Source of the DNA: Escherichia phage Ec_O157kw
Sequence record: PV857777.1
Direction: 5' to 3' (one strand)
Length of the DNA: 64,000 bases
The position numbers and the translations under genes are program-made. A model generated the notes under the pieces. The model was not told the origin of the DNA. It saw only the letters and a list, made by a program, of their open reading frames with translations, and made no database searches. Shown piece after piece: positions 46,373 to 47,717 of this stretch (position 1 is its first letter; each line of letters begins with the position of its first letter).

Positions 46373-46891
46373 ATGGCTTACTTTAATGAATGTTCACAAC
46401 TGATCGAAGGCGCTGATAAAGCTCAAAATGAATACTGGGATATTCTCGGTGATGAAAAAGACCCACTACAGGTTATGCTTGATATGCAGAAATCTTTACA
46501 GGTTCGTTTAGCTAAAGATAAACCTGAATATAACCGTCATCCTGATGATTTGGCTACTGCAGGCGAAGTTGTTGATTGGCTGCGTAATCAGAAAGATTAT
46601 ATTGACGATGAATTCCGTGAACTTCTGACTTCTCTTGGCGGCATGAGCAATGGTGAAAAAGATGCATCTGCTGTATGGAAACCTTGGAAGTCACAGCACG
46701 GTGAACGTCGTGAAACTCTAATTACTGATTTGTCTCCGCAAGACCAGTTGGAAATTAAATTTGAAATGATTGATATTCTTCATTTCGTTCTGAATATGTT
46801 CCAAGGTCTCGGTCTTACGGCTGAAGAAATCTTTAAACTTTATTATCTGAAGAACAAACATAATTTTGAACGTCAAGATAATGGATATTAA
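46373..46891 (+). CDS. 56: dCTPase/dCDPase gp56
   Basis: 172 aa from ATG 46373: MAYFNECSQLIEGADKAQNEYWDILGDEKDPLQVMLDMQ...FKLYYLKNK; matches T4 gp56; track start 46280 is an upstream extension. Confidence 0.93.
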   Translation: MAYFNECSQLIEGADKAQNEYWDILGDEKDPLQVMLDMQKSLQVRLAKDKPEYNRHPDDLATAGEVVDWLRNQKDYIDDEFRELLTSLGGMSNGEKDASAVWKPWKSQHGERRETLITDLSPQDQLEIKFEMIDILHFVLNMFQGLGLTAEEIFKLYYLKNKHNFERQDNGY

Positions 46892-47717
46892 TTTCAAATC
46901 TGCTCTTAAAGAAAAGTTCCCGCAATGGGAACTTTTAGATGAGTACTTAAAAATTATAGATAAATATAAGTTAAACACTCACATTAAATCTAAAACAGAA
47001 GCCCATCATATACTTCCTAAATGCGCATTTCCTGAGTATAGTGATTTTAAAATACATCCTTGGAATAGAGTATATCTCCCAATATATCAACACATATATG
47101 TTCACTATCTCTTATGTTCAACTGGAAGATTTGGATTGCTGAATGCATTCCAGAGAATGACCTCAGTAAATAGCTCGCAATTTAAGAAGCTTTCTGACTC
47201 AGAAAAAGACTTTACTATTAAGTTATGGGCTGATAAACGTGAGCAATGGATAAACCAAGATACTCTTCGTAAAAGAAAATCTTTCATGTATTCCAACTTT
47301 GATTTTTGGTATAATGACTGGATTTCAAGAGATATGCCTCGCTACCGAAGATATTGGGGAATTTTAGTTGAAGAAAATAACCCAGAAATTTTAGGTACTC
47401 ACAAAAATTGCCTAATAGCCGCAGTAAAAGATTTTTGCATAAGATATTCAAAGGAAAATAATTTATCTATAGAAGAAGTTTTAAATATTCAAAAATTAAA
47501 ACAGTCATCTGAAAAAGCTTTAAAAGCTAAAGGAAAAACTTTAAGCAAAACTGCACGCAGAAATCAACTTAAATGGAATTATGAAAAAGAGCTTAGAGAA
47601 TTATGGATTAATAACAACAAACCTAAATATGTCAATTTTAGAAAACTAGCAGTTAGCCTAGGTTATCCTGACGAAAATTATATAAACATGGTAAAGAGAT
47701 TTGAAAATGGATTATAA
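46881..47717 (+). CDS. HNH-type homing-endonuclease-like protein
   Basis: 278 aa from ATG 46881 overlapping the 3' end of gene 56; His-His...Asn...His arrangement (EAHHILPKCAFPEYSDFKIHPWNRVYLPIYQHIYVH); occupies the slot where T4 has segF. Confidence 0.5.
   Translation: MDINFKSALKEKFPQWELLDEYLKIIDKYKLNTHIKSKTEAHHILPKCAFPEYSDFKIHPWNRVYLPIYQHIYVHYLLCSTGRFGLLNAFQRMTSVNSSQFKKLSDSEKDFTIKLWADKREQWINQDTLRKRKSFMYSNFDFWYNDWISRDMPRYRRYWGILVEENNPEILGTHKNCLIAAVKDFCIRYSKENNLSIEEVLNIQKLKQSSEKALKAKGKTLSKTARRNQLKWNYEKELRELWINNNKPKYVNFRKLAVSLGYPDENYINMVKRFENGL

Follow-up and report, generated by a model that had tools for sequence, protein, structure and literature searches.

The window analyzed here, a 64,000-nucleotide (nt) stretch of Escherichia phage Ec_O157kw (PV857777.1), carries between gene 56 and soc a plus-strand open reading frame (ORF) at 46881 to 47717 which, judging from homology, conservation, and genomic context, very likely encodes a free-standing HNH homing endonuclease of the T4 Mob type that is maintained by selection. 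This ORF, here called the HNH gene, lies in the slot that T4 fills with segF, the gene for an endonuclease of the GIY-YIG family, and it has the same cassette boundaries as segF. The window belongs to a Tequatrovirus, its best 15-kb matches being PhiZZ23 and fPS-2, at ~96%.

The ORF listing and the raw sequence agree that the ORF starts with the ATG at 46881 and stops with the TAA at 47715 to 47717, giving 278 codons, with a start codon that lies within AATGGATATTAA among the last codons of gene 56 (...AAT GGA TAT TAA). The 278-residue length and the 11-nt overlap with gene 56 that had been reported in an earlier note on this DNA, made from the letters alone, are thereby confirmed; that note also had the ORF ending just upstream of soc, which is correct, but the spacer between its stop codon and the soc start at 47752 measures 34 nt and not 35. 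A longer version of the ORF would begin at an alternative TTG at 46866. With a stop frequency of 0.0785 per codon in this A+T-rich DNA, 278 consecutive open codons have a probability of ~1e-10, and 1,000 shuffles of the region gave no open stretch longer than 106 codons, so that an ORF of this length is far beyond chance. The G+C content is 30.1% in the ORF, compared to 37.8% in gene 56 and 38.8% in soc.

A PHROG scan of the encoded protein returned PHROG 655 ("homing endonuclease," E = 3e-32) and PHROG 12434 ("HNH endonuclease," E = 4e-10). By BLASTP, the protein aligns with T4 MobD over 259 residues, nearly its full length, at 24% identity (E = 2.6e-9), and its HNH block matches the T4 proteins MobB (E = 1e-3), MobE (E = 4e-3), and MobC (E = 0.04); a paralogue in T6, encoded upstream of gene 46, aligns over the full length at 30% identity (E = 3e-23). 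When the profile of the HNH protein family was compared by hhalign with a profile of T4 MobB, MobC, MobD, and MobE plus fPS-2 g030, the probability was 99.7% (E = 1.6e-25), with HHILPK paired to HHIIPR, WN.V.L to DNLV.L, and H..AH to EHFIAH. The His-His...Asn...His block that had first drawn attention to the ORF, AHHILPKCAFPEYSDFKIHPWNRVYLPIYQHIYVH, is present at residues 41 to 75. Within the catalytic stretch at residues 40 to 75 (46998 to 47105; E-A-H42-H43-ILPK ... W-N62-RVYL ... Q-H71-IYV-H75), H42, H43, N62, H71, and H75 align with the HH, N, and H..H of T4 MobB to MobE, in the H-N-H order of the superfamily. These five residues, as well as Y22 and P46, are invariant in an alignment of 81 homologues, and among five intact orthologues the catalytic block is the same except at position 59 (H, Y, or S), a residue outside the motif. 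The proposed HNH homing endonuclease assignment is well supported by these matches and invariant residues, and profile searches assigned no non-nuclease fold to the protein.

Relatives of the protein were recovered by an exhaustive HMMER search, which yielded 774 and was needed because a word-indexed protein search had returned only 3 matches. Pfam matches among 70 homologues were to NUMOD3 (14), I-HmuI_NUMOD-like (4), HNH (4), HNH_5 (2), and HNH_4 (1). An identity as segF or another GIY-YIG enzyme is ruled out: the protein has no GIY-YIG Pfam match, tblastn with SegF does not match the window ORF, and sequence likeness to SegF is confined to a weak match at the C-terminal end (E = 0.07 to 0.6), with none to the catalytic half.

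The N-terminal and C-terminal parts of the protein (residues ~4 to 140 and ~200 to 276) were matched independently among the HMMER relatives, which indicates that it is modular. For the N-terminal domain (residues 1 to 130; 46881 to 47270), AlphaFold2 gave a model with a predicted local distance difference test score (pLDDT) of 94.4 and a predicted template modeling score of 0.87, in which strands at residues 39 to 43 and 63 to 67 are followed by a helix at 68 to 81. In the model, these elements carry the invariant residues in what appears to be the expected beta-beta-alpha arrangement, and the domain would be a beta-beta-alpha-metal nuclease with H42/H43, N62, and H71/H75 as its catalytic residues. 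The middle of the protein probably forms a helical linker that includes a degenerate stretch resembling NUMOD3. The C-terminal region (residues ~200 to 278) is conserved as a separate module common to MobD, the T6 paralogue, and fPS-2 g030; it is 45% identical to the last of these (BLASTP E = 1.5e-9) and also falls inside the MobD alignment. Its last ~50 residues (230 to 278) are modeled as three confident helices (pLDDT 86 to 98), and we presume that this three-helix module (residues 223 to 278; 47547 to 47714) binds DNA, in the manner of a MobD-kind module.

In sequence and context, the HNH gene thus has the attributes of the T4 Mob family, namely, a homologous N-terminal HNH domain, a distinct C-terminal region, and the position of an optional gene placed in the same orientation between conserved genes. 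Within that family, it appears to belong to a subfamily in which the loop between HH and N reads FPEY..K..PWN, compared to MGG.DD..N in T4 MobB to MobE.

The gene was found at the same 56/soc locus in 30 phage records and segF was found in 50, while the 5' part of gene 56 was found in 562; both endonuclease genes are minority occupants of the slot. Identity is 97% to 98% among Tequatrovirus phages of Escherichia, Yersinia, Citrobacter, Klebsiella, and Shigella, 92% to Moonvirus KM16, and 85% to Gaprivervirus DK-13. RefSeq and several submitters label the gene "HNH endonuclease" or "homing endonuclease," others leave it hypothetical, and one record wrongly calls it "similar to SegA."

The five sequenced orthologues with an intact ORF span three genera, and the ratio of nonsynonymous to synonymous divergence (dN/dS) is 0.06 to 0.10 in all 10 pairs, with the N-terminal, middle, and C-terminal regions alike. 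In every pair, the HNH gene has a dS 2 to 6 times below the gene 56 value; its dS is also below that of gene 61 wherever measured and below that of soc except in some DK-13 comparisons. Between the window and KM16, for instance, dS is 0.40 for the HNH gene, 1.22 for gene 56, 2.21 for gene 61, and 1.13 for soc. In 50-nt steps, identity to KM16 goes from ~80% in gene 56 to 88% to 100% exactly over the HNH ORF and down to 46% to 72% in soc, while the high-identity tract shared with DK-13 runs ~150 nt into soc. Taken together, the low dS, the identity peak, the G+C content, the low dN/dS, and the patchy distribution form the pattern of a gene that appears to move horizontally between phages, including across genera, while staying functional.

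These observations suggest how such a cassette could spread. We infer that the protein is a nuclease that, in a mixed infection, would attack the homologous 56/soc region, by a nick or a cut, in a coinfecting relative without the gene; repair by recombination with the carrier genome would then transfer the gene together with short flanks to the recipient, amounting to intronless homing with localized marker exclusion. This proposal is modeled on SegF, an enzyme that cleaves T2 gene 56 and leads to localized marker exclusion (PMC2988022, PMC2330249). A cut site near the insertion point is suggested by the sharp edges of the KM16 tract and the short extension of the DK-13 tract into soc; it might lie in the polymorphic 3' end of gene 56, at the 56/soc junction, or in the 5' part of soc. 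Gene 56 is a candidate target gene of the enzyme, and soc is an alternative candidate.

To define the slot itself, we compared 46 loci, comprising the window, T4, fPS-2, wV7, ACG-C40, DK-13, and 40 viral contigs with gp56 identities of 57% to 97%; KM16 and vB_EcoM_005 are represented by two of the contigs. These loci fall into classes by the distance from gene 56 to soc. In the empty class (39 to 45 nt), the gene 56 stop codon directly precedes (G)TTATAAATACACCTGTAAT..., classes with small ORFs measure 174 to 254, 400 to 464, or 592 to 610 nt, the segF class (T4 and two diverged phages) measures ~700 nt, and the HNH gene class measures 860 nt. T2 has likewise been reported to carry soc.1 and soc.2 between gene 56 and soc, according to PMC5931544, which cites Belle et al. 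2002. Inserts always fall between the stop codon of gene 56 and soc's late-promoter motif TATAAATA (47713 to 47720 in the window, plus strand), a motif with just 3 copies in the 64-kb window that adjoins the gene 56 stop in empty sites and forms the right boundary of the cassette.

The boundaries of the HNH gene coincide with those of T4 segF. Each gene begins at the ATG of AATGGATATTAA and ends in a TAA that falls within TATAAATA, and, as the earlier note had stated, T4 carries the GIY-YIG gene segF in the equivalent slot, where its overlap with gene 56 is also 11 nt. Furthermore, the final 69 nt of the window's gene 56 (46823 to 46891, plus strand), which contain the start codon of the HNH gene, are identical to T4, while the remainder of gene 56 is 77% identical. 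Close relatives lacking an endonuclease gene (wV7 and contigs L008 and L012) differ at ~13 of the last 40 nt of gene 56, their gp56 ending in ..AENFARQDRGY as opposed to ..KHNFERQDNGY in the window. Because this tail is identical to T4 and differs in the endonuclease-less relatives, the HNH and segF cassettes appear to share their left arm by descent, which points to cassette exchange in one context and not to two independent insertions. The idea of a recurrent landing site for endonucleases of different families holds as well, the slot being variously empty or occupied by small ORFs, segF, or the HNH gene, with the caveat that the identical left arm argues against two separate landings.

A further connection between the two cassettes lies at the protein level, where hhalign of the C-terminal region of the HNH family against the SegF family gave a probability of 93% (E = 3e-7). 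This homology fits the description of SegF in a review as a "hybrid" endonuclease (PMC2988022). A swap of catalytic domains in situ between segF and the HNH gene was nevertheless rejected as unsupported, since the SegF module resembles those of MobD and the T6 paralogue more closely (z = 8 to 13) than that of the HNH protein (z = 4 to 5). As a more general hypothesis, the 56/soc slot may be a plug-in site at which GIY-YIG segF and HNH cassettes displace each other, sharing a 69-nt adapter (with a hairpin before the start codon and the ATG itself), the soc promoter end, a hairpin near the 5' end, and C-terminal modules of a related type; we regard this scenario as possible but rather doubtful. 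That several endonuclease families occupy or target one locus is an established theme (PMC2988022, PMC10448857). The segment from gene 56 through soc is also a hypervariable island, since the flanking genes 61 and mrh.2 are nearly identical to T4 (~97%), compared to 77% for most of gene 56 and 66% for soc.

With respect to expression, no sigma-70-like or late-promoter motif of note was seen just upstream of the HNH ORF. The cassette has no recognizable promoter of its own and is probably transcribed by read-through from gene 56, making the gene 56 promoter the probable source of its transcript, and translation would begin at the ATG overlapping the gene 56 stop. A hairpin with a 10-bp stem lies 32 to 56 nt into the ORF (46912 to 46936, plus strand; AAAAGTTCCC-GCAAT-GGGAACTTTT in DNA and AAAAGUUCCC-GCAAU-GGGAACUUUU in RNA). 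Folding of this region is significant (z = -3.06, with none of 200 shuffles folding as well), the stem is unchanged in six carriers despite dS values of up to 0.9, and the hairpin is the most conserved 50-nt block across genera. Its loop reads GCAAT in five carriers and ATTGC, the exact reverse complement, in ACG-C40, where the stem is unchanged and the codons go from PQW to PLR; this inversion implies that the repeat pairs in vivo. In the fPS-2 record, a terminator is annotated at the hairpin, and the corresponding position of T4 segF is taken by a terminator hairpin that differs from this one. Internal 5' terminators have been described for segF and mobE, and that of mobE was shown experimentally to limit the transcript (PMC2988022, PMC2790892). 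The hairpin is thus a probable weak intrinsic terminator or attenuator, which would dampen expression of the HNH gene as in mobE and segF.

Other structures were noted at the two ends of the cassette. A 7-bp hairpin (46863 to 46879; AUUUUGA-ACG-UCAAGAU) directly precedes the HNH start inside the 69 nt identical to T4. An old T4 annotation raised the possibility of a 56-69 fusion protein made by ribosome hopping over a pseudoknot at the gene 56 3' junction (quoted in PMC5931544). At the other end, CACCUGU, downstream of the late promoter, is predicted to pair with the soc start region (AUGGGUG) at 47720 to 47765, although this folding is no better than that of shuffles (z = -0.13). Such pairing would sequester the ribosome-binding region of soc on long transcripts, in agreement with the established control of soc at the level of translation (cited in PMC2988022).

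Several points weigh against reading the gene as a functional homing endonuclease. The protein has no match in Pfam or NCBIfam, even at E values of ≤1, and is not recognized by the curated HNH models (Pfam PF01844 and HNH_3/4/5; NCBIfam). Sequence (phmmer) and profile searches of PDB gave chance matches only, and fold searches retrieved no HNH structure at significance. The conserved hairpin has no free U-tract, since its U-run is paired, so that a simple terminator scan made no call. The putative cut site is placed from identity tracts only. In the literature searched, we found no paper characterizing this gene and no activity, target, or homing data for it.

The first alternative retains the same biochemistry and concerns why the gene is kept. 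The HNH nuclease may be maintained for the benefit of the phage, for example by keeping out competitors' alleles of gene 56/soc or through local recombination or amplification, instead of being purely selfish. The purifying selection acting on the whole protein, even at a dS of ~0.9, is unusual for a parasitic gene expected to decay and would be explained by such a role. It would also be in line with the position of fPS-2 gene 56 between two Mob-type genes, which resembles a "HEG island," where HEG stands for homing endonuclease gene (concept in PMC10448857), and with a report (PMC13096335) that SegB aids immune evasion by amplifying antidefense loci. However, the gene is present in only ~5% of phages with gene 56 and is disrupted in one lineage, as expected from a selfish cycle of gain and loss, and no cargo or defense gene is found in the cassette; we therefore regard a role of this kind as unlikely.

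A simple decaying relic is rejected by the dN/dS of ~0.07. In a modified version of this idea, the ORF is inactive but retained because its deletion would harm the stop codon of gene 56, the promoter of soc, or the terminator that it contains. The failure of any Pfam HNH model to recognize the protein and the departure of its HH-N loop, FPEY..K..PWN, from the MGG.DD..N of T4 MobB to MobE would be compatible with lost activity, and T4 itself has a defective mobA and a defective I-TevIII. Yet a dN/dS of ~0.07 holds in all three regions of the gene, including those far from the flanking signals, the motif residues are all invariant, the ORF is intact in five orthologues from three genera, and its low dS relative to the flanks argues for recent spread, which together make an inactive relic very improbable. 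Hardly credible is a protein serving mainly as a DNA-binding regulator with a noncatalytic HNH-like domain, which might, for instance, repress soc or gene 56 or set the timing of their expression: the highly conserved helix-rich C-terminal module, the overlap of the stop codon with the soc late promoter, and the precedent of I-TevI as both nuclease and autorepressor (PMC2988022) would suit it, but the catalytic His and Asn residues are invariant, most relatives lack the gene and still express soc from the same promoter sequence, and there is no sign of an operator. A Mob-type homing endonuclease thus accounts best for the data.

Compared to known systems, the protein is closest among T4 proteins to MobD, whose own activity has not been determined and which is the only one aligning over nearly the whole length. 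The two have in common an N-terminal HNH domain, a C-terminal W..LY.LW..N.PK...F....GYP module, and a free-standing position between conserved genes, but MobD resides at the nrdC.11/mobD.1 locus and differs in its HNH loop (MGG.DD..N) and linker. The closest paralogue is that of T6, PP01, ECML-134, and many other phages ("homing endonuclease" or "MobD-like"), which has the same FPEY...WN variant of the HNH block and the same C-terminal module but lies between genes 47 and 46 and is likewise uncharacterized. MobE, the Mob endonuclease that has been studied experimentally, resembles the HNH gene in its homologous HNH domain, promoterless cassette, internal 5' terminator, and sporadic distribution; in contrast, it has 141 residues with a short, unrelated C terminus, and it is located between nrdA and nrdB and targets nrdB. 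SegF shares with the HNH gene the slot, the start in the 69-nt tail, the stop in the TATAAATA of soc, the hairpin in the 5' coding region, and a distantly homologous C-terminal region, but its catalytic domain is unrelated (GIY-YIG as opposed to HNH), with no likeness in the N-terminal halves. Phage HNH nickases of the I-HmuI type combine an HNH domain with an extended linker, a C-terminal helix-turn-helix, and NUMOD modules. Some homologues of the HNH protein match Pfam I-HmuI_NUMOD-like and NUMOD3, but I-HmuI is intron encoded, not free-standing, and the HNH protein has no significant match to solved structures.

The neighboring genes are those named in the earlier note. Gene 56, encoding dCTP/dUTP pyrophosphatase (46373 to 46891, plus strand), matches Pfam dUTPase_2 (E = 7e-7) and PHROG 173 (NTP pyrophosphohydrolase; E = 2e-46), and its product is 76% identical to T4 gp56 and 97% to 98% identical to the gp56 of wV7 and L008. 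On the other side, soc, encoding the small outer capsid protein (47752 to 47988, plus strand), matches Pfam Soc (E = 6e-19) and PHROG 1715 (E = 2e-41) and is followed by a terminator at 47995 to 48016.

Variation around gene 56 is not confined to the 56/soc slot. The slot upstream of gene 56 contains dam in T4 and ACG-C40 and only a 66-residue reverse-strand ORF in the window (46105 to 46372), while fPS-2 (g030; 1341 to 1991 of L002), L022, and L033 have a second Mob-type HNH gene there, the N-terminal part of which is 62% identical to MobE and the C-terminal module 45% to 49% identical to that of the window protein. As a result, essential gene 56 is bracketed by two HNH genes in fPS-2. In the IMG/VR copy of vB_EcoM_005 (L033, 2400 to 4240), gene 56 is partly duplicated in tandem, with a shortened 139-residue copy first and a second, chimeric ORF that joins codons 1 to 19 of the HNH gene, in frame, to gp56 residues ~54 to 172. 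The HNH gene of this phage comes next and has a 5-nt insertion right behind the hairpin that disrupts the N terminus, and the breakpoints coincide with the hairpin. DK-13 (L050) carries a further annotated homing endonuclease gene directly behind gene 61 (785 to 1534), as well as an extra 77-residue ORF between the HNH gene and soc (3327 to 3560) that overlaps the HNH stop codon.

In conclusion, the HNH gene is an ordinary, uncharacterized representative of a familiar class of selfish genes in phages and is already annotated automatically in public records. It adds to the best-studied system of free-standing HEGs an uncharacterized Mob-type enzyme from a subfamily missed by curated Pfam and NCBIfam models. 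Its most interesting aspect is the identity of its cassette boundaries with those of segF and the 69-nt left arm common to both; otherwise, it is the kind of gene expected in a T-even phage. With identical boundaries next to an essential gene, segF and the HNH gene form a natural pair for studying competition between endonuclease families. Should the HNH enzyme cut genomes that carry segF in addition to empty ones, or should the opposite apply, nature would offer an example of one HEG replacing another. The same pair could show how much flanking DNA moves between phage genera, along with the part that internal terminators and overlapping start codons play in tuning the expression of such genes.

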